Origin: a virus
Lineage: Duplodnaviria; Heunggongvirae; Uroviricota; Caudoviricetes
Direction: 5' to 3' (one strand)
Length of the DNA: 36,585 bases
IMG/VR virus record: IMGVR_UViG_2778261448_000005
Part shown: positions 4,443-35,321 of the stretch, piece after piece
How the letters are laid out: each line of letters begins with the position of its first letter
How positions within the stretch are numbered: position 1 is the stretch's first letter
Position numbers and translations under genes: made by a program
The notes under the pieces: generated by a model
The model's input: the letters and a program-made list of their open reading frames with translations, nothing else
Databases searched by the model: none
Told to the model about the DNA's origin: nothing

Positions 4443-4673
4443 ATGGCAGACCGCAAACAGCACCGCGCTATCGCGGAGCGTCGTCACATCCAGACTGAAA
4501 TCAACCGCAGACTTTCCCGCGCATCACGCGTCGCGCAAATCATGCACATCAATATGCTGCATGAGCGCAGCCACGCACTATCAAACATTTATTCCGCCTC
4601 TGTTTTCAGCTATCTGGCGGATGATCTGCACGAGCTTCAACAGCTCATCCAGCAGCAAAACAAACTCCATTAA
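4443..4673 (+). CDS. hypothetical early-region protein
   Basis: 76-aa ORF with GAGG RBS upstream. Confidence 0.4.
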   Translation: MADRKQHRAIAERRHIQTEINRRLSRASRVAQIMHINMLHERSHALSNIYSASVFSYLADDLHELQQLIQQQNKLH

Positions 4674-4745: not shown

Positions 4746-5135
4746 ATGATTGACGCTCATGACTTCACAAGATGGGTGCGCACACAGGACACCCGTCTGG
4801 CTCCCGTTCTTCAGGGGTTATTTGATCTCTACATCCGTGGTCGTGACAACAGAGCACGCACCACAAAACCGGAGAATGCAGACACCCTTTATTTCACAGT
4901 AGACGACTGCTACCGCGTGGACTTCACACCACACGGACTGGCGTTGCACTGCCTGACACCGCACGGCGAATCACTGCTGGCGTATTACGACTCTCCGGCC
5001 TCCGTATTTGCAGCAATGCTGGCGCATCGCACTGCTGGCGGGTGTGCCTCGCTGAGTGAATACACCGCTGAATTTAACCGCCTTTCCGCCCTCTTCTCGC
5101 AGGAGTGGCAGCGCGTGACGGGATACCAGCCATGA
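4746..5135 (+). CDS. hypothetical protein, translationally coupled to gpA
   Basis: 129-aa ORF whose stop overlaps the gpA start (ATGA at 5132-5135). Confidence 0.45.
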   Translation: MIDAHDFTRWVRTQDTRLAPVLQGLFDLYIRGRDNRARTTKPENADTLYFTVDDCYRVDFTPHGLALHCLTPHGESLLAYYDSPASVFAAMLAHRTAGGCASLSEYTAEFNRLSALFSQEWQRVTGYQP

Positions 5136-7972
5136 GTGCGTTTGCATGGAGCTGGAATGAACCACGACCAGCTATTGATCCGGCCAGATTTACGGAGCGC
5201 AGGCAGGAAACTGAAACCGACCTGCAACGCGCCATCCGTTACTACCTTGAGGCGGACAAAAGGGCACAGGAAGAACAGGAAGCGAAGGAAGAAGCCTTTT
5301 TCGCACAATCCGCCATGGGTAAAAAACTCATGGCATCCCTTGAGGAAGCCGGACAGCGTGAAAAGCTGGCACAGAGCATCATCAGTAAGCGCCGGGCAAC
5401 AGAACAAGACCCGGTAGCCCGTGCCTTTGCCACACTGAAGGCGCTTCCCGGTTATCTGCGAGAACCTCTGAGCCGCCACCTCTCTTTCCTGCGCAAGAAG
5501 CAGGAAGCCGATCGTCAGAAAGGCAAAAAGACCTGGCAGGCGGAACGCTATGCACGCGGAACCCTGCGCAAAATATTCGAACGTCTGGATCGCACTGACG
5601 GGCGCTGGCTGACACCTGGTTATCGCTCCCTTGCCGGACGCGAACGCCTGGACGATTTGCTTTACCTGCCGCAGCTCAACAAACACCAGATACAGACGCT
5701 GGCCACCATGACGGCGGCGATGTTCAGCAGCACCTTCGAAAAACTCTGCGATGGCTTTGGCGCGACCGATGGCGAACTGACCATGGATGTAACGCTGAAG
5801 GCGTATCAGATGCTGGCCCGCATGGCGTTACACCTGCACATCATGCCTCCACATTATGACGCACTGACAACAGATAAAGACCGGAGGAACGAACCGGACA
5901 CGGAGCTGCTGCCGGGCGCAATCCTTCGCCTGACCTGTGCGGAATGGTGGAAACGCAAACTGTGGCTGTTACGTTGCGAGTGGAGAGAAGAACAACTCCG
6001 CGCCGCCTGTCTGGTTTCCAGAAAAACATCGCCCTATCTGAGCCAGGACGCATTAAGCGAGTTTCGCGCACAGCGCGAGAAAACACGCGATTTCCTGAAA
6101 AGTTTCATGCTGGAAAACGAAGATGGGTTCACGATTGATCTCGAGACAGTGTATTACGCGGGAGTAAGTAACCCGGTTCACCGTAAGGCAGAAATGATGG
6201 CCACCATGAAGGGGCTGGAACTTCTGGCCGAAGCCCGTGGCGACAGAGCGGTGTTTCTGACTGTCACCTGCCCGTCAAAATACCACGCCACAACAGAGAA
6301 CGGTCATCCGAATCCCAAATGGAACGGAGCCACCATGCGCGACTCCAGCGATTACCTGGTTAACACGTTTTTTGCGGCGGTCCGCAAGAAACTGAACCGC
6401 GACGGCCTGCGCTGGTATGGCATCCGCACGGTGGAGCCTCACCATGACGGCACCGTGCACTGGCATATGATGGTCTTTGCTCATCCGGAAGAAATCGACA
6501 CTATTGTGTCCCACACCCGCGATATTGCCATTCAGGAAGATCGTCACGAGCTGGGTGATGATATTACCCCACGCTTTAAGGCGGAGTACGTCGACGGCTC
6601 AAAAGGCACACCGACCAGCTACATCGCCACCTACATCGGGAAAAACCTGGACAGCCGTGCCGTGGATGGCATCGACCCGAAAACGGGCAAGCCACGCGTT
6701 GACCACGAAACCGGAAAATCAATGGCCGAGAGCGTGGAACGCGCCATCGGCTGGGCGCGCCTTCACCGGGTCCGCCAGTTCCAGTTCTTTGGCATCCCCT
6801 CCCGCCAGGTATGGCGTGAACTGCGCCGCCTTGCCAGCCAGATGGCACGCAACCCGGAAGGCCCGCAACGGCTGAAGGATGACGCAATGGATGCGGTTCT
6901 TGCCGCCGCTGATGCCGGATGTTTTGCCACCTACATAGAGAAACAGGGCGGCGTACTTGTTCCACGCAAAGACTACCTGATTCGCACCGCCTACGACCTC
7001 GCCGATGAGATGAACGATTACGGCGAACAGAGCGTACAGATTTACGGGATCTGGTCACCACTCATCGGGGAATCCTCCCGTGTGTGCACGCATCCGGATA
7101 ACTGGAAGCTGGTAAGACGCAAACCGGAAGCGGAAGACAGCGCCCGCGAAAATGGTTTTGACCTTCAGGGCGGCCCTGCCGCCCCTTGGACTCGTGGCAA
7201 TAACTGTCCCCGTGTACAGGAAACGGACAACAACGGGACAGAACAGCCGGAAGAACGGCCAGCACCGTGGCCGCAGCTCCCTAACGGCGTTGAAGTGAAC
7301 GAATGGATGCGCTCACTGAAACGACACGAACGCCGGGCGCTGATGCGTTCGCTTCGTGACAAACAGGCAAAAAACAGCAGCGATGAAATGCAGAGCTGGA
7401 CACAGAGCCGCAAACAGCAGCGGCCTTTGCCTGATAACCACGAATTACTCGCTAAAGAATGGCGGGAGTCTGCTGAATCTCTCGGCCTGCATATCGGTGA
7501 ACAACAGATGCAGCACCTGTTACGGGGCGGCAGTCTGTACGTTGACGGCAGCATCATTGCACCGCAGGGATTTGAAATTGTACGCAAACCGGATGCCCGC
7601 CCGGACAGCCGAATCACGCAGCTCTGGCAGCGCCTGAGCCGTAATCACGGCGTAAGCAGCACGGAGATCCGCCATAACCCGGTCTCCAGCTATCTGGCAC
7701 AGCTCGGGGCATCAGACCCCGAAGCCGCCGCACGCCTGGCATCCACACTTCAGCAGGTCCAGAACACCATGAAAACACCCGTTACCGTGCTTTCTGACAT
7801 GCTGCGCGCCATTCGTGACGCAGAGCACGCACAGAGAATCAGAGAAACCACTGAACGCGCCCGCCGCAAAGCAAACCTGCTGAGGACTGGCCTGACCAGT
7901 GGAAACAAAAAACAGACAGAAACGGGATTCACAAATCCCGTAAATGAGCAAAAAACGCGCCGCGATATATGA
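5132..7972 (+). CDS. A: rolling-circle replication initiation endonuclease, P2 gpA family, with a long C-terminal extension
   Basis: Metal-binding HxH motif (HDGTVHWHMMVF) and paired active-site tyrosines (SYIATYIGKN). About 946 aa from the ATG at 5132. Confidence 0.9.
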   Translation: MSAFAWSWNEPRPAIDPARFTERRQETETDLQRAIRYYLEADKRAQEEQEAKEEAFFAQSAMGKKLMASLEEAGQREKLAQSIISKRRATEQDPVARAFATLKALPGYLREPLSRHLSFLRKKQEADRQKGKKTWQAERYARGTLRKIFERLDRTDGRWLTPGYRSLAGRERLDDLLYLPQLNKHQIQTLATMTAAMFSSTFEKLCDGFGATDGELTMDVTLKAYQMLARMALHLHIMPPHYDALTTDKDRRNEPDTELLPGAILRLTCAEWWKRKLWLLRCEWREEQLRAACLVSRKTSPYLSQDALSEFRAQREKTRDFLKSFMLENEDGFTIDLETVYYAGVSNPVHRKAEMMATMKGLELLAEARGDRAVFLTVTCPSKYHATTENGHPNPKWNGATMRDSSDYLVNTFFAAVRKKLNRDGLRWYGIRTVEPHHDGTVHWHMMVFAHPEEIDTIVSHTRDIAIQEDRHELGDDITPRFKAEYVDGSKGTPTSYIATYIGKNLDSRAVDGIDPKTGKPRVDHETGKSMAESVERAIGWARLHRVRQFQFFGIPSRQVWRELRRLASQMARNPEGPQRLKDDAMDAVLAAADAGCFATYIEKQGGVLVPRKDYLIRTAYDLADEMNDYGEQSVQIYGIWSPLIGESSRVCTHPDNWKLVRRKPEAEDSARENGFDLQGGPAAPWTRGNNCPRVQETDNNGTEQPEERPAPWPQLPNGVEVNEWMRSLKRHERRALMRSLRDKQAKNSSDEMQSWTQSRKQQRPLPDNHELLAKEWRESAESLGLHIGEQQMQHLLRGGSLYVDGSIIAPQGFEIVRKPDARPDSRITQLWQRLSRNHGVSSTEIRHNPVSSYLAQLGASDPEAAARLASTLQQVQNTMKTPVTVLSDMLRAIRDAEHAQRIRETTERARRKANLLRTGLTSGNKKQTETGFTNPVNEQKTRRDI

Positions 7973-8048: not shown

Positions 8049-9008
8049 ATGAAAATTTGTATCGACGACGGCTCCACCAACATCAAGCTGGCATGGACTG
8101 AGAATGGCGAACGCCGCAACGCCATCAGCCCGAACAGCTTCAAGTCGGAATGGTCTGCGCCGTTCGGTGGCATGCAGCCCGCGAACTACATGCTTGATGG
8201 CGTGCGCTATGGTTTTGATCCGGTCAGCGATCGCTTTGTCCAGACGACCGACACGCAATACCAGTACAGCGATGTGAATGTAATCGCCATTCATCACGCG
8301 CTGGTCAAATCAGGCATCACGCCACAAGAGGTGGATGTGGTTGTCACCCTGCCACTGAGCGAGTATTTCGAGACAAACGCACAGCCGGACATGGCCAACA
8401 TCAACCGCAAAAAAGCGAACGTTATGCGCTCGGTGGAGTACCAGAACGGCGAAGCATTCACTATCCGTAACGTGCGGGTTATGCCTGAATCCATTCCGGC
8501 TGGCTTTAAAGCACTGGCTGACATGAGTCCGTTTGAATCCCTGCTGATTGTGGATTTAGGCGGAACCACGCTGGATGTGGCAAAGGTTCAAGGGCAACTG
8601 GCAGGTATCAGCCAGGTGTTTTGCGATCCACACGTAGGCGTTTCCCTGATGGCCGATGCCGTACTGTCGGTGATGGCCACTAACGGTATGCGCACCAGTC
8701 ACCACATCGCCAATACCATTATCGAACATCGCCATGATGAAGCCTGGCTGCGCCAGCACATCCACAATGACGCGCATTACGCCAGCCTGATGGCGGTTAT
8801 TCGTGAAAAGGAAGAAACACTGAAACAACGCGTGATCCGCGCGCTGGCGGTTTTTTCGGGTTACGGGCGGGTGATGGTTGTCGGTGGAGGGGCGGAGATT
8901 GTGGCACCCGCTATCCGCGAAGTCTGCGGAGTTAATGCGACTTTCATCGCGGACGGGGTGCCACAGTTTGCTCTGGTTAATGGGCTGTACGCAATGGACA
9001 AGGAGTAA
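8049..9008 (+). CDS. parM: ParM/StbA-family actin-like segregation ATPase
   Basis: N-terminus MKICIDDGSTNIKLAW and downstream blocks (SPNSFK, YSDVNVIAIHHAL, DLGGTTLDV, VGGGAEI) closely parallel plasmid R1 ParM as I recall it. AAGGAAA RBS. Confidence 0.85.
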   Translation: MKICIDDGSTNIKLAWTENGERRNAISPNSFKSEWSAPFGGMQPANYMLDGVRYGFDPVSDRFVQTTDTQYQYSDVNVIAIHHALVKSGITPQEVDVVVTLPLSEYFETNAQPDMANINRKKANVMRSVEYQNGEAFTIRNVRVMPESIPAGFKALADMSPFESLLIVDLGGTTLDVAKVQGQLAGISQVFCDPHVGVSLMADAVLSVMATNGMRTSHHIANTIIEHRHDEAWLRQHIHNDAHYASLMAVIREKEETLKQRVIRALAVFSGYGRVMVVGGGAEIVAPAIREVCGVNATFIADGVPQFALVNGLYAMDKE

Positions 9009-9012
9009 ACCA

Positions 9013-9327
9013 ATGACGACACCAACCAGACGGATAAGTTTCTATCTGAAGCCCGCCGCCGTCAAGAGTGAACAGGAGGCGTGCAATTACCTCGATAGCC
9101 TACCAGCCTCCGAACGCAGCCGCGCGCAACGCGCGGCCTTTCTGGCTGGGCTAGCGCTCATAAAGCGCAACCCAGCATTTGCCTACTGGATGGCCGAATG
9201 GCCAGAGGACAACCTCCCCTTCAATACCGTTAGCATCAAGGAAACATACCAGGATAATCAGCCTAGCGGAGTTGAATGCAATTTTTATAGAATAAAAAAG
9301 AATATTCAGACCTTATTCCCAGAATAA
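9013..9327 (+). CDS. parR: ParR-like centromere-binding adaptor
   Basis: 104 aa immediately downstream of parM. N-terminal segment (RRISFYLKP ... LDSLPASERSRAQRAAFLAGLAL) resembles R1 ParR. GGAG RBS 7 nt upstream. Confidence 0.7.
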   Translation: MTTPTRRISFYLKPAAVKSEQEACNYLDSLPASERSRAQRAAFLAGLALIKRNPAFAYWMAEWPEDNLPFNTVSIKETYQDNQPSGVECNFYRIKKNIQTLFPE

Positions 9328-9375: not shown

Positions 9376-9400
9376 TGGCACCCTTGCTAACAGGGTGCCA
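9376..9400. terminator. hairpin between convergent parR and the membrane-protein operon
   Basis: TGGCACCC-loop-GGGTGCCA stem-loop in the convergent intergenic gap. Confidence 0.45.
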
Positions 9401-9410
9401 ATGTTTCAAA

Positions 9411-10253
9411 TCATGATGAAATTGCCGAAGTTTTTTTATCGTGCTGAAGTACCGCAAATGCCATTAAAACCTCAAGAGAATAGCGGCGATAATACTTAAC
9501 AAAACCATAATAAAATACTCGGGATGCAGCAATACAAAACAAGAGAAGAAAACAAAAAGGTAACAGTCTGATATTTATATCTATTAAAAAGGATAGAAGG
9601 AGCAGGAACATAAGCAACCAGACTGAAGCGAGAAAAACAAATGTAATGTTTCTACAAAAACCATACAAAGCAACATAGTTTTGCATTTTCACCTGATGAT
9701 TTTTAGAATGTTCATACACATAATGATAAGCAAGGCGAAAAAGATCGCCCCTCAAGCCCTTACGTCGATATAGCGTAGATACAGAAAAAACATTTATATA
9801 ACCATCTCGTATTTGCGGCCAAAAGACTTTAATAAGTATAGAATGCAGTGTGGTTTTATGATGTTCTGCTTTATCAAAAGCTGATACAGGAAATAAAAAA
9901 ACTCCACGAATAAAATTAACTATACTGAACTTAGTATTATGTCGTTTTATTTTCAGGGAGCTTCTTTTAGAAAACAGATAAATTGAAGGATACCCAAGTT
10001 TACTGTTCATGTATTTTTCAATTAAACAGGATGATAGAATAGATATGAAGTGACCTGAAATATATGATAGAACGATTAATGCCACATATATAAATACACT
10101 TATTATTTCTTTATATTTCAGGATATGGTTAAGAATACCTTCTATATAAACAGGGTTAATTTCAATAGAAAACAAAAAAAGGATAAACAGGAATAACCCA
10201 CCTGGAATTAGATAGCCCAAAAAGTCATAAAATGAAAACGGATTCTGTGTCAC
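9411..10253 (-). CDS. multi-pass membrane protein of unknown family, AT-rich cargo
   Basis: 280 aa, GTG start preceded by GGGGGAAG. Hydrophobic helices at both ends (about 4-5 TM). Visibly lower GC than the phage backbone. Confidence 0.6.
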   Translation of the reverse strand: MTQNPFSFYDFLGYLIPGGLFLFILFLFSIEINPVYIEGILNHILKYKEIISVFIYVALIVLSYISGHFISILSSCLIEKYMNSKLGYPSIYLFSKRSSLKIKRHNTKFSIVNFIRGVFLFPVSAFDKAEHHKTTLHSILIKVFWPQIRDGYINVFSVSTLYRRKGLRGDLFRLAYHYVYEHSKNHQVKMQNYVALYGFCRNITFVFLASVWLLMFLLLLSFLIDINIRLLPFCFLLLFCIAASRVFYYGFVKYYRRYSLEVLMAFAVLQHDKKTSAISS

Positions 10254-10292
10254 ACTTCCCCCTGTGTTACTTGTAAATTAAAGGGTAAAACA

Positions 10293-10790
10293 TTATTTGT
10301 TTTTCCGTAAAGGATTAGCTTTCCATCTTCTTACTAACCATTCGAATTCTTGATATGTAGTATCCGAATTAATGCTTTCTCTGATTGCTTTAATTAATGG
10401 CTCGGCAATATCATATGTCTCTACAACTGTTGTGTAAGATGTTCTTTTTATCATTTTTTCATCATAAATACCTTCACGAATACTTACAGCAACTCGCTCG
10501 TAAAAATTTAAAATATATTGAAATTTTCGACGCTCGGCCATTTCTTCATCTGTTATTATGCAACCATCACAAGGAAAAACATAAGAACGAAATGATTTGC
10601 CTGAACGATGCACTTGTTTCAGGGTATGCAATGACTCTATATATTGCATATCTTGCCGACTCTCAAAAAGAAAGTTGGCCGTTTGAGTTTTTTTTGCGGT
10701 ACGCACATTGTAGATAATGGTTCCAATGGCAACCAAAACGCCAAGCAGAACAATAGCATTGCTGATGATTTGTAGTGTTATTGGGTTCAT
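10293..10790 (-). CDS. single-pass membrane protein of unknown family with CDGC motif, AT-rich cargo
   Basis: 165 aa, N-terminal TM helix (ISNAIVLLGVLVAIGTIIY), then a soluble domain. First gene of a two-gene minus-strand operon with 9411-10253. Confidence 0.6.
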   Translation of the reverse strand: MNPITLQIISNAIVLLGVLVAIGTIIYNVRTAKKTQTANFLFESRQDMQYIESLHTLKQVHRSGKSFRSYVFPCDGCIITDEEMAERRKFQYILNFYERVAVSIREGIYDEKMIKRTSYTTVVETYDIAEPLIKAIRESINSDTTYQEFEWLVRRWKANPLRKNK

Positions 10791-10804
10791 CCTATTTCAT
10801 CCAT

Positions 10805-10831
10805 AAAAAAGGCGGGGAGCAAATCCCCGCC
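10805..10831 (-). terminator. intrinsic terminator reading on the minus strand, just upstream of the cargo operon
   Basis: GGCGGGGA-loop-TCCCCGCC stem (8 bp, GC-rich) followed on the minus strand by TTTTTT. Confidence 0.45.
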
Positions 10832-11438
10832 TCATTAGAGGTCAACGTAGCTTAGAAACCATCAAATTCATCATACATTTTTTTCATATCAACCCCCTCA
10901 TAGAAATCATAACCACGTTTTGTGGTTTTTGTGACGTATAAACTACATCAAAGGCAAGCCACGGTCAAATATATAGGCATGCTTACCTGCACAAAAGTGC
11001 ACAAATTTGCACAATTTTTTTGAACGACTTTTTACCCTTCCGGCCCGCATGGCGGCTGGATCCGTCAAGGATCCGTGCGTGCACAAAAAAACGCGCTTTT
11101 TCTGCGCGCAGGTGACGGGGGAACAGCCCGCGTTTCAGGGGGTAAATAGCATTCCCTGAACGATGTCGCAGAGATACAACAGAATGGCTGTATTTCTCAC
11201 GCTGAGCGTGAAAAAGACGTGAGGGCTTTTGATTTGATGAGGTGAAAGGTAAGGCCGTCAAAATCGCACTGAGACGGCGAGAACATGCAGTCAACGCGGT
11301 GGGATTGCGTAAGAGTCTGACTGTCGATGATGGCAATCAGCAGGAAAGCGTCGTGAAATTATCTGACTGATACAGGAGCTGGAGAGTCGGGGCATAAATT
11401 TTTTATGCCCCGGCGAAGCAGCAGACAAGCGAAGCGCG

Positions 11439-12485
11439 TCAGGATGTGGGCTGGGTGTCTAACAGTGCGTAAGGGTTAAAGCGGATCACCTCTTCGCCAA
11501 GCCAGTCATTGATGTGCTTCATGGCCTCCATGACAGGCATCAGCTCGTTAATTGCGTAAACCCGCGCGGCCTTCTCCACATCACCAAACGCACTTTTTTC
11601 GCCCGGCATCGCCCCCATCAGTTGCGGCGGAACGCGGTGCGCAGCCAGCACATCATCACGGGATGCCGCCTTAACATTCATGAACTCATCTTTTGCGGTG
11701 ATCTGCTGGAACGGCAAAATTTGCACCCCCTCTTTGCCCCCGTTGGGCGCATGAATGAGCACGTTTTTAAACGCACCACCACCACGTGCCCCCTGTAGCG
11801 TTTCTTTCAGGGAGTCCATGCTTTCGCGGTTTACCTGCGCTGCACCGATGTAGATGATGCACCCGGCGTGGGATCCGTTGTCGTAGTACAGTTTTCTGAA
11901 CATGTCCGCCGAATGAGAAAGGCTGGCCGAGAGTAATGCGCCAAGATATTCCGGCATGCCGTAGATTTCCTGGTTAATATCCGGATTCATCAGGTGGCAC
12001 ACTTTGCCAGGACGAAACTGGAACGCGTCCTTGCCATCCTGCACATACCACCATGATTCAAGATCGCTTCCGCGTCGCATGTATTTCGCCAGGGCGTGCC
12101 GTAATTTAAGCGGTTCGCCGAGCATATTGCTTCGAAGCTCAAGGAATGCGTTACCGAACACAAACCAGTCCAGCGCCAGCGCCGAGAAATCCTGCCGGGA
12201 AAGCAGCGGGTGCGGGATGTAGCAACCGAGTAATACATTGCGCTTAAAGTAAAGCGCAGACTGATGCCAGGACGTTTGCCGGGCAGCTCTTGCCAGACCG
12301 TACCAGTCCACCGGAGTTTCATACCACCGCCCGTTATCAGCACAGTACATATTGTCCAGCAGGTCATGCCCGGTCAGGCGATAAGGACCATCAAATGTGA
12401 ATGCACTGAGCGATGATTCTTTCCTGAGCGCATCAGCGAGATCAATGCGTGAACTCATGCGCACTTTTTTATTTTTTCTGCTCAT
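11439..12485 (-). CDS. Q: portal protein, P2 gpQ family
   Basis: 348 aa (P2 gpQ about 344 aa). Downstream of and overlapping the large terminase in the leftward P-Q operon. Confidence 0.9.
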   Translation of the reverse strand: MSRKNKKVRMSSRIDLADALRKESSLSAFTFDGPYRLTGHDLLDNMYCADNGRWYETPVDWYGLARAARQTSWHQSALYFKRNVLLGCYIPHPLLSRQDFSALALDWFVFGNAFLELRSNMLGEPLKLRHALAKYMRRGSDLESWWYVQDGKDAFQFRPGKVCHLMNPDINQEIYGMPEYLGALLSASLSHSADMFRKLYYDNGSHAGCIIYIGAAQVNRESMDSLKETLQGARGGGAFKNVLIHAPNGGKEGVQILPFQQITAKDEFMNVKAASRDDVLAAHRVPPQLMGAMPGEKSAFGDVEKAARVYAINELMPVMEAMKHINDWLGEEVIRFNPYALLDTQPTS

Positions 12486-14236
12486 CAGAACTCCATAACC
12501 GTGAAACGCTCGTTTTCTCCTTCGCCGCCAATCGGTTCGTTAATGACAGCAAGCATGGTTGCCCACGCAAGGTCGCCGTGGCTGATCCCCCTCGCGCGGT
12601 CCGTTTCGTAAGTGATAAAGCCGCCCGGTGTTTTCACTTTACGCACGGCGTTAAAGGCCGCGACCAGCTCGCGTTCGGCGCGATCGTATTCCCACCGCCC
12701 GGCACGCATTATTTGCAGCATTTTCAGTACCAGCGACCGTTTTGATGACAGCGTGAAGGTGTACGGAATAGCAGCAGGGAAAAACCGTTTCACTATCTGA
12801 TAAACAGCCTCCCCGTTCCCGCCCGTCACATCAATGCCGATGTGTTCCACGTTGTAGCGATACGTGAACTCTTCAATGACTCTGGCCTGTTCTTCAAACT
12901 CCAGCCCCTGAACGCGTCGCGTCTCCACCGTTCGAAAACGGCCACCAGGAACAGCCGGAGGAACCACCACGGACACAGCGCCGCTGTCGCCGTTGCCACT
13001 GCTGCCGTTTGCGTCATACCCAATCCATACCGGACGATTCCCCATCGGGCGGGGAGCAAAAGGTTTCCAGTCTTTCCAGTCGTCGTATCCGTCAACACCG
13101 CAGCCAATCAGGATATTCAGGTTAAATGCCGATTCCCCTTCGCGAACAAACTCACACATATAGAGATTGAGGAACTCGTCTTCGGTGTTTTCATCACGGA
13201 TTTCGTCAATATCGGTGTGTTTCCAGCCGTGATTAACCACATCTTCCAGCGTGACAATTTGCCGCCACGTCCGGTCAGGGCAGATAAGCCCGTTATGCAG
13301 CGTTTTCCAGTCCACAGAAAAACGCTGGCGTTTATGCGAGGCCTTTTTCTCGTTCCAGCGGTCGCCGTTCCAGTAGGCGTATGCCTCGTGCGTTTCGGTG
13401 GATGGCGTGGAGAAGTAGGTGCGCCGCAGTCCGCTGAGGGTTGCCATAGCGCCAGCCACCTTGCGCAGTTCAGCAAAGCGACTGACCCAGAAAAATTCAT
13501 CAAAATAAAAATTGCCCGTATAGGACTGTGCCGACGCAGCAGAAGTGCCGAGAAAATGCAGCTCTGCGCCGTTGGAGAGGATGATTTTATCGCCCCCTTT
13601 CAGCTCCACATCAACTTCAGCCGCGGCCTTCTGAATAATGCTTTTAAACTGGAACGCCTGACGACGCGACGCAGACAAAAAAATCTGGTTACGCTGGTAA
13701 GGTTGCGCCACATCGTCACGCAGCGCCATCAGCAGAGCTTCCTGTGCAAAATACCAGGTCGCCCCAATCTGTCGGGATTTCAGGATCATCCTGTTACGTA
13801 TCCCGGCTTCCCTGCAAAGTGTCAGGGAGTCAAACCAGCCCCGCTGATGCCACTCCAGCCTGCTGATGATTTTTTCCCGCAGTGCGGCAATCTGTTCCGG
13901 CGTGAAATGATTTTTGAGTTTTTTCGCCCGGCCTTTCTTTCCTGCGGCCATCACATCCGGCTGGCCATCATGCAGCTTTTTAAGCTGCCGGGTCAGCAGG
14001 TCTATTTCCTTAAAGTCACCGCCTGTTTTATTCTGTTTTTCAGTAAGCTGGATGAGGCGCGCATCGATGGACTGCGTGACACGCTGCACGGGTGGCGTTT
14101 CATCCCACTGGTCACGTTTTTTCCACGCATAAATCGTGTTCGGGTTTATTCCCATCAGACGTGATATTTCTGCGGGCGGATAACCCTGCCAGTAAAGTTG
14201 CCGCGCACGCTGGCGCACAAAAGCGTCCTGAATCAT
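12485..14236 (-). CDS. P: terminase large (ATPase) subunit, P2 gpP family
   Basis: 583 aa with a terminase-type Walker A-like segment (ILKSRQIGATWYF). Divergent from the O-N-M operon as in P2. Confidence 0.9.
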   Translation of the reverse strand: MIQDAFVRQRARQLYWQGYPPAEISRLMGINPNTIYAWKKRDQWDETPPVQRVTQSIDARLIQLTEKQNKTGGDFKEIDLLTRQLKKLHDGQPDVMAAGKKGRAKKLKNHFTPEQIAALREKIISRLEWHQRGWFDSLTLCREAGIRNRMILKSRQIGATWYFAQEALLMALRDDVAQPYQRNQIFLSASRRQAFQFKSIIQKAAAEVDVELKGGDKIILSNGAELHFLGTSAASAQSYTGNFYFDEFFWVSRFAELRKVAGAMATLSGLRRTYFSTPSTETHEAYAYWNGDRWNEKKASHKRQRFSVDWKTLHNGLICPDRTWRQIVTLEDVVNHGWKHTDIDEIRDENTEDEFLNLYMCEFVREGESAFNLNILIGCGVDGYDDWKDWKPFAPRPMGNRPVWIGYDANGSSGNGDSGAVSVVVPPAVPGGRFRTVETRRVQGLEFEEQARVIEEFTYRYNVEHIGIDVTGGNGEAVYQIVKRFFPAAIPYTFTLSSKRSLVLKMLQIMRAGRWEYDRAERELVAAFNAVRKVKTPGGFITYETDRARGISHGDLAWATMLAVINEPIGGEGENERFTVMEF

Positions 14237-25612: not shown

Positions 25613-26218
25613 CTATTTATACAATACAACACCGCTCTTTTTAGTTATATATGTGCAGTTCGATGGTATATCTTTATTTATAAAAGACATTGCACCTATT
25701 TTTACATTATCCCCAATTTTACGTGATAATCCAATGATGCAACAATTAGCTCCGATATCAACGTTACTACCAATTTTTACTCTTGAACCAGGCATGTCAC
25801 CATCTATCTGTCCAATGGTAGTATTCTGTCGTAACACCAGATTTTCACCAGCATCAACAGCAAAATGAACAACAATTCCAGCATGATGGGGAATTGTTAA
25901 CCCTTTTCCAATATTTGCTCCCAATCCTATTTCACAACCAAATTTGTTAATTATTTTACTGTTTAACTTCTTGGCTGCTTTCTTATGTAATTTATTACCA
26001 TTAATATACATTTCGTTAGCCAACCGCCACCAGAAAAGGAAATTCCTGTTACGCTGCTTTTTCTCTCTTAAAAGCCTCCAGATATCCATACGTTTCCGCC
26101 GAATTACTTCATGTTTCCAGAAGTTTTTTAAATTAGTAGAGTTCCCAAATAAAACAAAGTGAATTGCCATTAGGTAAGACAGCACGATAATCTCCTTAAT
26201 TATTATTTCAGACCACAC
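25613..26218 (-). CDS. hexapeptide-repeat (left-handed beta-helix) acetyltransferase, AT-rich cargo; start uncertain (26218 or 26170)
   Basis: Hexapeptide repeats visible (VKIGSNVDIGAN, IGDNVKIGAMSFI, IGANCCIIG). Low GC. Sits at the Z/fun position between G and the tail genes. Confidence 0.7.
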   Translation of the reverse strand: MWSEIIIKEIIVLSYLMAIHFVLFGNSTNLKNFWKHEVIRRKRMDIWRLLREKKQRNRNFLFWWRLANEMYINGNKLHKKAAKKLNSKIINKFGCEIGLGANIGKGLTIPHHAGIVVHFAVDAGENLVLRQNTTIGQIDGDMPGSRVKIGSNVDIGANCCIIGLSRKIGDNVKIGAMSFINKDIPSNCTYITKKSGVVLYK

Positions 26219-34090: not shown

Positions 34091-34423
34091 ATGGCATTAA
34101 TCAAATGTCCTGAATGCCAGAAAGAGGTGAGCGATTCAGCATTGTATTGCCCTGCTTGTGGTAAACAACTGCAAAAACTTAAGCGTTCATTTTTTGGACG
34201 GATCATTAAGTGGGTTTTTATATTATTTAATATTTTTATGATCTATACGCTTTTAGTTGGACTAGGAGGCACTAGTGAAATAATAAATAATGCCACATCC
34301 GATGCCGAAAAAGCCGGTGCAGTTATTGGTACAGGCTTAGGTTTAATTACCATTGGAAGCTTATGGGTTATTGGCGATATCATTATCGGAATTTTAGTAT
34401 TTCTTACTAAACCAAAGGGATAA
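34091..34423 (+). CDS. zinc-ribbon membrane protein, AT-rich cargo
   Basis: N-terminal CPECQ ... CPACG zinc ribbon followed by two hydrophobic helices. GGAGG RBS. Low GC. Confidence 0.5.
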   Translation: MALIKCPECQKEVSDSALYCPACGKQLQKLKRSFFGRIIKWVFILFNIFMIYTLLVGLGGTSEIINNATSDAEKAGAVIGTGLGLITIGSLWVIGDIIIGILVFLTKPKG

Positions 34424-34427
34424 TAAA

Positions 34428-35321
34428 ATGAAAAATATAATTTTTTCTATAGGTGCATCATTTATATCAATTAGTGTACTGCCTGTTCAAGCAGCAACTG
34501 AACATAAGAACTTCAATGCAGTACTCCAGTGCCGAGCAATAGAAAATAATAAAGACAGACTTTCTTGTTACGATAAGTCAATACAACCGACTCGAACGAA
34601 AGTTGCTGAAAAATTCGAAAGCAGAGATCAATGCCCTGATGAGAAAGATGATGATAGACGTTTATCTTGTTATGATCGTTTCTTTTCTCCAACATTTACT
34701 CCATCTGTAAACTCAAAATCTAAAACGGAAAAGCCAGTAACAACAGAGGCTCAGCAACCAAATCTTTCTGAGATATCTAAATGTCGTGCAGAAAATGATA
34801 AAGAAGCCAGACTAAACTGCTACGATAAACTATTCCCACAGGATAAAATCGCTCAAGCTGAATCAAAATTAGAGAAAGCCACAGATGTAGGAAAATGGCA
34901 CACATCCATTACTACATCGCCAATTGATGATTCGAAAAATGTAATTTTATCGTTAGAAAGTGATGATTATATCAGAACTCCATTTGGAGAAGCGGTTACT
35001 CCTACTCTTTTTATAGCTTGCCGAGAAAAGAAAACCGAAGTATTTCTTAGTTGGGATGTATATTTAGGCCTTGAACAAACCAGCATGCTTTATCGCCTTG
35101 ATAAACAGAAAGCAGTTGAGCGAAACTGGCTAGTATCTACAGATACAAAGGCTGTTTTTTATAAAGGTAATGACATTGATTTCATCCGAAAACTAGCCAA
35201 CTCAAGCAAAATGTATACAAAAATAACGCCTTATAATGAGAGCCCCGTAAGTGCAACTTTCAATTTAAACGGCCTGTCAAACGCGCTAAAACCGCTTCAA
35301 GCTGCTTGTAACTGGAAATAG
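34428..35321 (+). CDS. secreted protein with three Cys-x(n)-RLSCYD repeats, AT-rich cargo
   Basis: Signal peptide (MKNIIFSIGASFISISVLPVQA). Three repeats (CRAIENNKDRLSCYDK, CPDEKDDDRRLSCYDR, CRAENDKEARLNCYDK), then a roughly 150-aa C-terminal domain. Low GC. Confidence 0.5.
   Translation: MKNIIFSIGASFISISVLPVQAATEHKNFNAVLQCRAIENNKDRLSCYDKSIQPTRTKVAEKFESRDQCPDEKDDDRRLSCYDRFFSPTFTPSVNSKSKTEKPVTTEAQQPNLSEISKCRAENDKEARLNCYDKLFPQDKIAQAESKLEKATDVGKWHTSITTSPIDDSKNVILSLESDDYIRTPFGEAVTPTLFIACREKKTEVFLSWDVYLGLEQTSMLYRLDKQKAVERNWLVSTDTKAVFYKGNDIDFIRKLANSSKMYTKITPYNESPVSATFNLNGLSNALKPLQAACNWK

Follow-up and report, generated by a model that had tools for sequence, protein, structure and literature searches.

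Between the replication gene gpA and the portal gene Q of a P2-like (P88-type) Escherichia coli prophage lie two adjacent AT-rich genes for membrane proteins, and the question raised by this locus is whether they form a single anti-phage system or are independent genes that have become neighbours. The stretch analysed, hereafter the window, comprises 36,585 nucleotides (IMG/VR record IMGVR_UViG_2778261448_000005). The two minus-strand open reading frames (ORFs) encode a protein of 165 amino acids (aa) belonging to the Pfam family DUF4760, with a single predicted transmembrane (TM) helix, and a 280-aa protein with four predicted TM helices (the 4-TM protein). An initial annotation, made from the sequence alone, had placed both ORFs correctly, as the same two coding sequences are annotated in RefSeq (coordinates in Table 1). 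It had also described them as markedly AT-rich, which agrees with G+C contents of 31.8% (280-aa gene) and 34.9% (165-aa gene) compared with 51.7% for the whole window and 52-57% for the flanks, and had located them in the gpA-to-portal hotspot of P2, which is borne out by the gene order (gpA, ParM, StbB, 280-aa ORF, 165-aa ORF, portal, terminase); hydropathy analysis likewise confirms that the products are a single-pass and a multi-pass membrane protein. On the distribution of homologous sequences, we consider it highly probable that these are two unrelated, independently mobile single-gene modules that stand head to tail in the cos-proximal P2 hotspot. The best explanation of the locus as a whole, to which we give even chances, combines these stacked modules with attenuation control of DUF4760 by an upstream leader and with an anti-phage function for the two membrane proteins.

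Although the initial annotation presented the pair as undescribed, it is already on record. Rousset et al. (2022; PMC9122126) surveyed the gpA-to-Q hotspot of P2, and their Table S5B contains the same pair as P2-hotspot “System #3” (DUF4760; 1 TM + 4 TM), with sequences and 1102 loci. The DUF4760 sequence given there is identical to that of the window and the 280-aa protein differs at one residue. This entry is a catalogue line with no function attached, and neither protein sequence was found in the accessible part of the table of tested systems (Table S2) of the same study. The pair is hence a catalogued yet uncharacterised cargo. A 1.6-kb segment of the locus is 99.9-100% identical in three deposited phage genomes, and 289 of the 5426 complete E. 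coli genomes carry it over 80% or more of its length. IMG/VR contig UViG_2909272501_000003 encodes a 100% match to the 4-TM protein.

To follow the two families separately, loci were taken from viral contigs and from a single genome of each species, and the other family was sought in each by tblastn. None of the 22 species-representative DUF4760 loci (46-88% identity) has a 4-TM homolog within 6 kb. Six of these are located in P2-like prophages, five between portal and gpA and one as a truncated copy (L029); the initial annotation had proposed to check whether the pair recurs in the same hotspot of other P2-like prophages, and these diverged loci carry DUF4760 without the 4-TM gene. Among the viral contigs, the 4-TM gene is missing from 37 of 46 DUF4760 loci, and DUF4760 from 68 of 77 4-TM loci. 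The closest diverged DUF4760 genes (~88%; Xenorhabdus and metagenomic P2-like phages) stand alone directly after the portal gene, and other solo copies are cargo genes (morons) of unrelated Klebsiella prophages or orphans between housekeeping operons. E. coli, Salmonella and Enterobacter very commonly carry homologs of the 4-TM protein (~44% identity); at the solo viral loci a CI-like repressor gene is found upstream on the same strand in 55 of 68 cases and an integrase gene downstream on the same strand in 45 of 68. The nine viral loci that contain both genes represent one cassette (DUF4760 98.8-100% and 4-TM 94-99.6% identical to the window), so that co-occurrence of components across diverged relatives, as in a multi-gene defence system, was not observed. 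Since co-occurrence is limited to this near-identical cassette, we conclude that the modules appear to have been juxtaposed in one E. coli P2-like lineage and do not constitute an obligate two-gene system.

The genomic contexts of the two families also bear on their function. Both occupy classical prophage cargo slots (the cos-proximal hotspot of P2 and the repressor-to-integrase interval of lambdoid prophages), both consist of membrane proteins and both show rapid turnover. Defence cargo is documented and dense at this P2 locus (PMC9122126; PMC9519451), and six of eight randomly chosen unannotated loci at the analogous hotspot of P4 satellites protected against phage (PMC13586616). We tentatively propose a defence or exclusion role, at somewhat less than even chances, in which both proteins would be expressed in the lysogen and would counter incoming phage through a block to DNA entry or through a membrane-based form of abortive infection. 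Several observations tell against such a role. No characterised exclusion or abortive-infection family was matched by either protein in Pfam, PHROGs or PADLOC, and no Pfam or PHROG function match links them to superinfection exclusion or RexB-like proteins. Searches of the literature for DUF4760, PF15956 and the RefSeq accessions returned no functional study, and no phage test of the pair was found. The orphan chromosomal copies of DUF4760 weigh against defence or exclusion, and the region may, because of its low G+C content, be subject to silencing by H-NS, so that expression in the lysogen is itself presumed. The initial annotation had recognised no named defence family, and this stands: PADLOC gave no match to the named anti-phage systems (Old, Tin, PARIS, retrons, Kiwa, the Rst_ systems, PD-T4/T7/lambda and Abi), the scan yielding a weak Csx27 match for the 280-aa protein and, for the 165-aa protein, PDC-S35 alone, at a level too low to be meaningful (E 0.014; 4 of 40 members).

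It is conceivable that one or both genes serve instead as lysogenic-conversion or fitness cargo, contributing to envelope or membrane homeostasis, stress tolerance or DNA uptake. This would account for the absence of defence homology in PADLOC and for DUF4760 orphans among housekeeping genes; moreover, P2 hotspots also carry non-defence cargo, namely ParM/StbB and cytolethal distending toxin (PMC9122126), and a proposal that Csx27 functions in uptake of single-stranded DNA (ssDNA) is cited in PMC11662929. We nevertheless regard a fitness role as unlikely, as the two classical cargo slots and the rapid turnover are a better fit to inter-phage conflict, to which the protective P4 loci also point.

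Less probable again is that the two proteins make up one two-component membrane defence system, a sensor and an effector working only as a pair, which is close to the effector pair envisaged in the initial annotation. Only 39 nt separate the genes, which share a strand, and the scan called no terminator between them; for these reasons they are probably co-transcribed in this cassette. They have been curated as one system (PMC9122126) and occur together in all 289 carrier E. coli genomes. However, all co-occurrences represent a single near-clonal cassette, whose 4-TM protein shares at least 94% identity with that of the window, while diverged relatives are never found near the other gene. Within the cassette the two genes have diverged unequally (4-TM 94-96% where DUF4760 is ~99%), and each family is widespread alone, with a conserved solo context of its own. 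A qualification to the two-module reading is that both genes could cooperate functionally in this particular cassette.

The DNA upstream of DUF4760 forms part of the same module. The initial annotation had described a terminator-insulated operon bracketed by hairpins at 9376-9400 and 10805-10831. Both hairpins are present; the first lacks a T-run and was not called by the terminator scan, whereas the second is a strong terminator (10833-10809 on the minus strand), with 10 pairs, 7 of them G-C, followed by a T-run. Its end lies ~14 nt from the DUF4760 ATG, and for this reason we assign it to the 5' leader of DUF4760 and do not regard it as a simple insulator; it is one element of a conserved leader that accompanies DUF4760 in all genomic contexts, so that the reading as a terminator-insulated operon is not supported. 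Upstream of the terminator is an 11-codon upstream ORF (uORF) with a strong Shine-Dalgarno (SD) sequence, which is missing from the RefSeq annotation. Of 51 distinct regions upstream of DUF4760 homologs, 48 contain the motif D-E-[F/Y]-[D/E]-[G/W]-[F/L/C]-stop, whose 81 matches in 3.5 Mb of fetched loci all fall within DUF4760 loci. Variants of the peptide include MKKLFDEFDGF, MKKWFDEFDGF, MEAMFDEYDWF, MSIHDEYEGF and MRYSDEYEGL. First and second codon positions are nearly invariant, with variation mostly at the third; because the motif search was performed at the peptide level, a count of synonymous and non-synonymous changes is partly circular, a circularity that does not affect the positional linkage. 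The order promoter-like site, 5' hairpin, strong SD, uORF and terminator ahead of DUF4760 is shared by P2-like phages, other prophages and orphan chromosomal sites, down to ~46% protein identity.

Other elements of the leader are conserved to differing degrees. The core 6-bp stem of the terminator is paired in 15 of 15 aligned leaders and is invariant in sequence at five of its six pairs. The putative sigma-70 promoter has the form TTGACy-N16/17-TAnTTT, which recurs in the P2-like solo loci L009, L010, L012 and L042; the promoter scan chose another, non-conserved site (10935-10906). A hairpin of different sequence occupies the position of the window's 5' hairpin in other loci. A search of the leader against Rfam gave only matches far below gathering scores, and no literature was found on the peptide motif. 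Judged from the aligned sequences, the leader, consisting of uORF and terminator, is conserved with DUF4760 and is newly noticed here.

This arrangement suggests how expression of the first module, which comprises promoter, 5' hairpin, leader ORF, terminator and DUF4760, might be controlled. The gap from the terminator to the ATG is too short for a promoter. Expression of DUF4760, and of the gene that follows it in this phage, would thus require read-through of the terminator, to an extent set by translation of the leader peptide. A ribosome pausing at …DEFDGF-stop would keep the anti-SD segment from re-pairing with the SD region, and the CCUC end thus freed could pair with GAGG at the base of the terminator and so weaken termination. 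We slightly favour such leader-peptide-controlled attenuation of DUF4760. The SD/anti-SD pairing is present in the minimum free energy fold of the window leader (z = -2.66) and in 9 of 15 individual folds, and 77.6% of the cells of this helix are paired, compared with 51-69% for the whole structure with the partners slid by 1-3 columns. Leader-peptide transcription attenuators, for example tnaC, speFL, msrDL and the cat/cmlA leaders, resemble the window leader in possessing a short, strongly initiated uORF whose last codons are conserved, followed by a terminator directly before the gene. They differ in that the window leader has no Rfam match and its anti-terminator is a candidate. Attenuation is made less certain by the covariation of the SD/anti-SD helix, which is weak and mostly one-sided in the 15 aligned leaders, by the RNAalifold consensus, which did not recover this helix and contained a long-range pairing between the AUGAAAA start and the U-tract instead, and by the length of the proposed anti-terminator, which is only 4 bp.

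The uORF could alternatively encode a functional micropeptide, an antitoxin-like partner or ligand of DUF4760, with the terminator setting a high ratio of peptide to DUF4760. Conservation does reside in the peptide and not only in the RNA, the SD is strong and the peptide occurs invariably with DUF4760; its acidic, Phe-terminated tail is also reminiscent of the C-terminal tails of SSB proteins. We consider this improbable, however, since a length of 9-12 residues with the last six codons before the stop conserved, and a terminator following, is the classical layout of a stalling leader.

Two further observations concern the leader region. Directly after the U-tract of the terminator, the sequence AUGGAUGAA (10791-10804, minus strand) is conserved in most leaders. 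It was considered as a second mini-ORF of 5-6 codons with a stop overlapping the DUF4760 start (ATGA), which fits the window, L009, L012 and L013; as the frame is inconsistent elsewhere, no such ORF is claimed. In one copy of the cassette (L052/L131, IMGVR_UViG_2718217897_000009) the uORF is located ~1.4 kb upstream of DUF4760 compared with the usual ~60 nt, which suggests an insertion between leader and gene.

The 165-aa protein is a clear member of DUF4760 (PF15956), scoring 119.3 bits against a cut-off of 25 and covering positions 2-141 of 141. Kyte-Doolittle hydropathy indicates one N-terminal TM helix followed by basic residues, from which we infer by the positive-inside rule that the helical domain is cytoplasmic. 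In a Foldseek search of the PDB with the AlphaFold2 (AF2) model (predicted local distance difference test score, pLDDT, 93.4), EDS1 chains alone exceeded a TM-score of 0.5 (0.55-0.58), at E values of at least 0.2 that are not significant. The alignments to this family show 7-10% identity and include the TM helix of the unembedded model. The nearest solved fold is hence the EP domain of plant EDS1/PAD4, a resemblance of predicted fold only, which we treat as a lead. Sequence homology to the EDS1-family EP domain was not detected, and the 165-aa protein differs from EDS1, PAD4 and SAG101 in lacking the lipase-like N-terminal domain and in possessing a membrane anchor; a PDB sequence search with both family profiles returned nothing relevant. 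The EP domain of EDS1/PAD4/SAG101 is a receptor module for nucleotide signals made by TIR domains, and no TIR-domain gene is present among the window ORFs scanned. It is a long shot that DUF4760 is a phage and bacterial, membrane-tethered EP-domain relative that acts as immune receptor for a small nucleotide-derived signal and is gated by a translation-sensing leader that opens the terminator when the ribosome is disturbed by infection. If true, it would be another bacterial counterpart to the plant TIR-EDS1 pathway, together with a new class of stalling leader peptide.

The CDGC motif remarked on in the initial annotation is present at residues 74-77 of this protein; it is not conserved among homologs and was ruled out as a functional site. 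In the accessible part of DefensePredictor Table S10, other, longer E. coli proteins annotated as DUF4760 are scored as predicted defence genes; the window accession is not among the rows available there. A link to PD-Lambda-6 that was drawn from the longer proteins in this portion of the table is absent for the present subfamily in PADLOC.

The second module encodes a protein without a Pfam or NCBIfam family, which in PHROGs corresponds to phrog_12528. A profile search of the whole library returned 1045 cluster representatives, of which 232 reach E <= 1e-30. Four TM segments (TM1-TM4) are indicated by Kyte-Doolittle hydropathy and by the AF2 model (pLDDT 92.3), with a loop of ~120 aa between TM2 and TM3 that is probably cytoplasmic, and Phobius likewise gives 1 TM + 4 TM for the pair (Table S5B, PMC9122126). 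The PADLOC hidden Markov model of Csx27, an accessory protein of type VI-B1 Cas13b systems, aligns with the 280-aa protein (E 1.4e-5) across model positions 4-179 of 206; of 145 diverse family members it matches 104, the best at E 2.2e-10. A second membrane model of CAS-VI-B (tm_4) matches 33 of the 145; besides this only three other PADLOC models were matched, by 1-6 members each. The window protein's own match to Csx27 is modest, which counts against the assignment. On the profile matches across the family we take the relationship to be real but distant.

Csx27 and the window protein share four predicted TM helices and similarity over most of the profile, but the window protein is ~75 aa longer, with an expanded central loop. 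The gene is not Csx27 proper because it resides in a P2-like prophage and not beside cas13b; its neighbours are stbB, DUF4760 and the P2 portal gene, no dedicated search for cas13b or CRISPR repeats having been made. In 2019 Makarova et al. are said to have placed Csx27 in an expansive family of 4-TM proteins, predicted to be ssDNA channels linked to competence. Csx27 lowers Cas13b interference in E. coli and its function is unsettled (PMC11662929). The solo 4-TM homologs, located downstream of the repressor gene on the same strand, are in a position like that of rexAB in lambda, and like RexAB and superinfection-exclusion proteins these are small inner-membrane proteins carried as prophage cargo. 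Membrane proteins that act in superinfection exclusion include SieA and SieB of P22 and Imm of T4; no sequence or profile similarity to RexAB, SieA, SieB or Imm was found in Pfam, PHROGs or PADLOC.

The lambdoid loci show further regularities. In many of the E. coli and Salmonella prophages among L001-L005 and L055-L116 the solo 4-TM gene follows YfdP, YfdQ (DUF2303) and YfdR-like genes, in a conserved block that lies downstream of the repressor and ends at xis/int. Some E. coli prophages with the 4-TM gene adjoin chromosomal genes for DUF2713, zur (FUR family), CsbD-like, MatE and LexA-family proteins.

Table 1. Features of the gpA-to-terminase region of the window
Feature	Position	Strand	Evidence or remark
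gpA	5105-7972	+	
ParM	8049-9008	+	
StbB	9013-9327	+	
ParM/StbB partition module, separate neighbouring cargo	8049-9327	+	Pfam StbA_N, ParM_N and Plasmid_stab_B; Rousset System #1, Table S5B
Inverted repeat GGCACCC…GGGTGCC separating stbB from the convergent 4-TM gene, which may act as a terminator in both directions	9376-9400	.	
280-aa 4-TM inner-membrane protein, Csx27-like family	9411-10253	-	GTG start, SD GGGGGAAG
165-aa DUF4760 protein: N-terminal TM anchor and helical domain, probably cytoplasmic	10293-10790	-	
Intrinsic terminator GAGGCGGGG-AUUUGCU-CCCCGCCUU + U-tract, between uORF and DUF4760 start	10805-10833	-	terminator scan
Anti-SD-like segment GUUGACCUC, able to pair with the uORF SD region	10838-10846	-	suggestive
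11-codon uORF MKKMYDEFDGF-stop	10852-10887	-	strong SD GAGGGGG at 10899-10893
5' leader hairpin AACCAC-loop-GTGGTT	10911-10927	-	
Putative sigma-70 promoter: -35 TTGACC 10968-10963, 17-nt spacer, -10 TAGTTT 10945-10940	10940-10968	-	sequence
Terminator-like site between portal gene Q and the DUF4760 promoter	11091-11109	-	GCGCGCAGAAAAAGCGCGT + TTTTTTT
Portal (Q)	11439-12485	-	
Terminase	12485-14236	-	

That the pair is an accessory of the neighbouring ParM/StbB genes, aiding plasmid maintenance of the phage, is scarcely credible: the cassette is always beside ParM/StbB in E. coli, and two further DUF4760 loci (78% identity) have ParM, but ParM/StbB is found at 4592 hotspot loci as System #1, far more than DUF4760 (PMC9122126), most P2-like DUF4760 loci and all lambdoid 4-TM loci are without ParM, and the orientation is convergent with a hairpin between.

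Elsewhere in the window, the gpA replication protein has 955 aa; gpA of P2 is much shorter, at ~760 aa. Three closely spaced TTGTGCA repeats at 10985-11025 (minus strand), just upstream of the DUF4760 promoter, have similar counterparts in the P2-like loci L010 and L042 and possibly function as cos or terminase-binding elements. A search that allowed up to 3 mismatches did not find the cos sequence of P2 in the window, and the cos site was thus not placed. A second AT-rich island (36-40% G+C) is found at 25613-26218 on the minus strand, where gpU and the tail-fibre assembly gene flank what is likely to be the second P2 cargo locus. Its 201-aa product matches hexapeptide-repeat acyltransferases weakly and below threshold, and has no PADLOC match. 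On the plus strand, a third island (33-38% G+C; 34091-35321) contains genes for a zinc-ribbon protein of 110 aa and, behind it, a protein of 297 aa with a VasI-like domain of the type VI secretion system (Pfam E 4.5e-25); it has no PADLOC match, and its genes are possibly another cargo pair.

Few cargos of the P2 hotspot are commoner than this cassette, which ranks third of 169 curated systems and occurs in ~5% of complete E. coli genomes, including sequence type 131 (ST131). To view it as two modules changes how it should be cloned and tested, and gives each half a wider family, the Csx27-like proteins with more than 1000 cluster representatives on the one hand and DUF4760 on the other. The leader upstream of DUF4760 is a directly testable regulatory element that was missed by genome annotation. 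Should it prove responsive to infection or translation stress, it would reveal how a membrane protein that may be toxic is held silent by a prophage until required.

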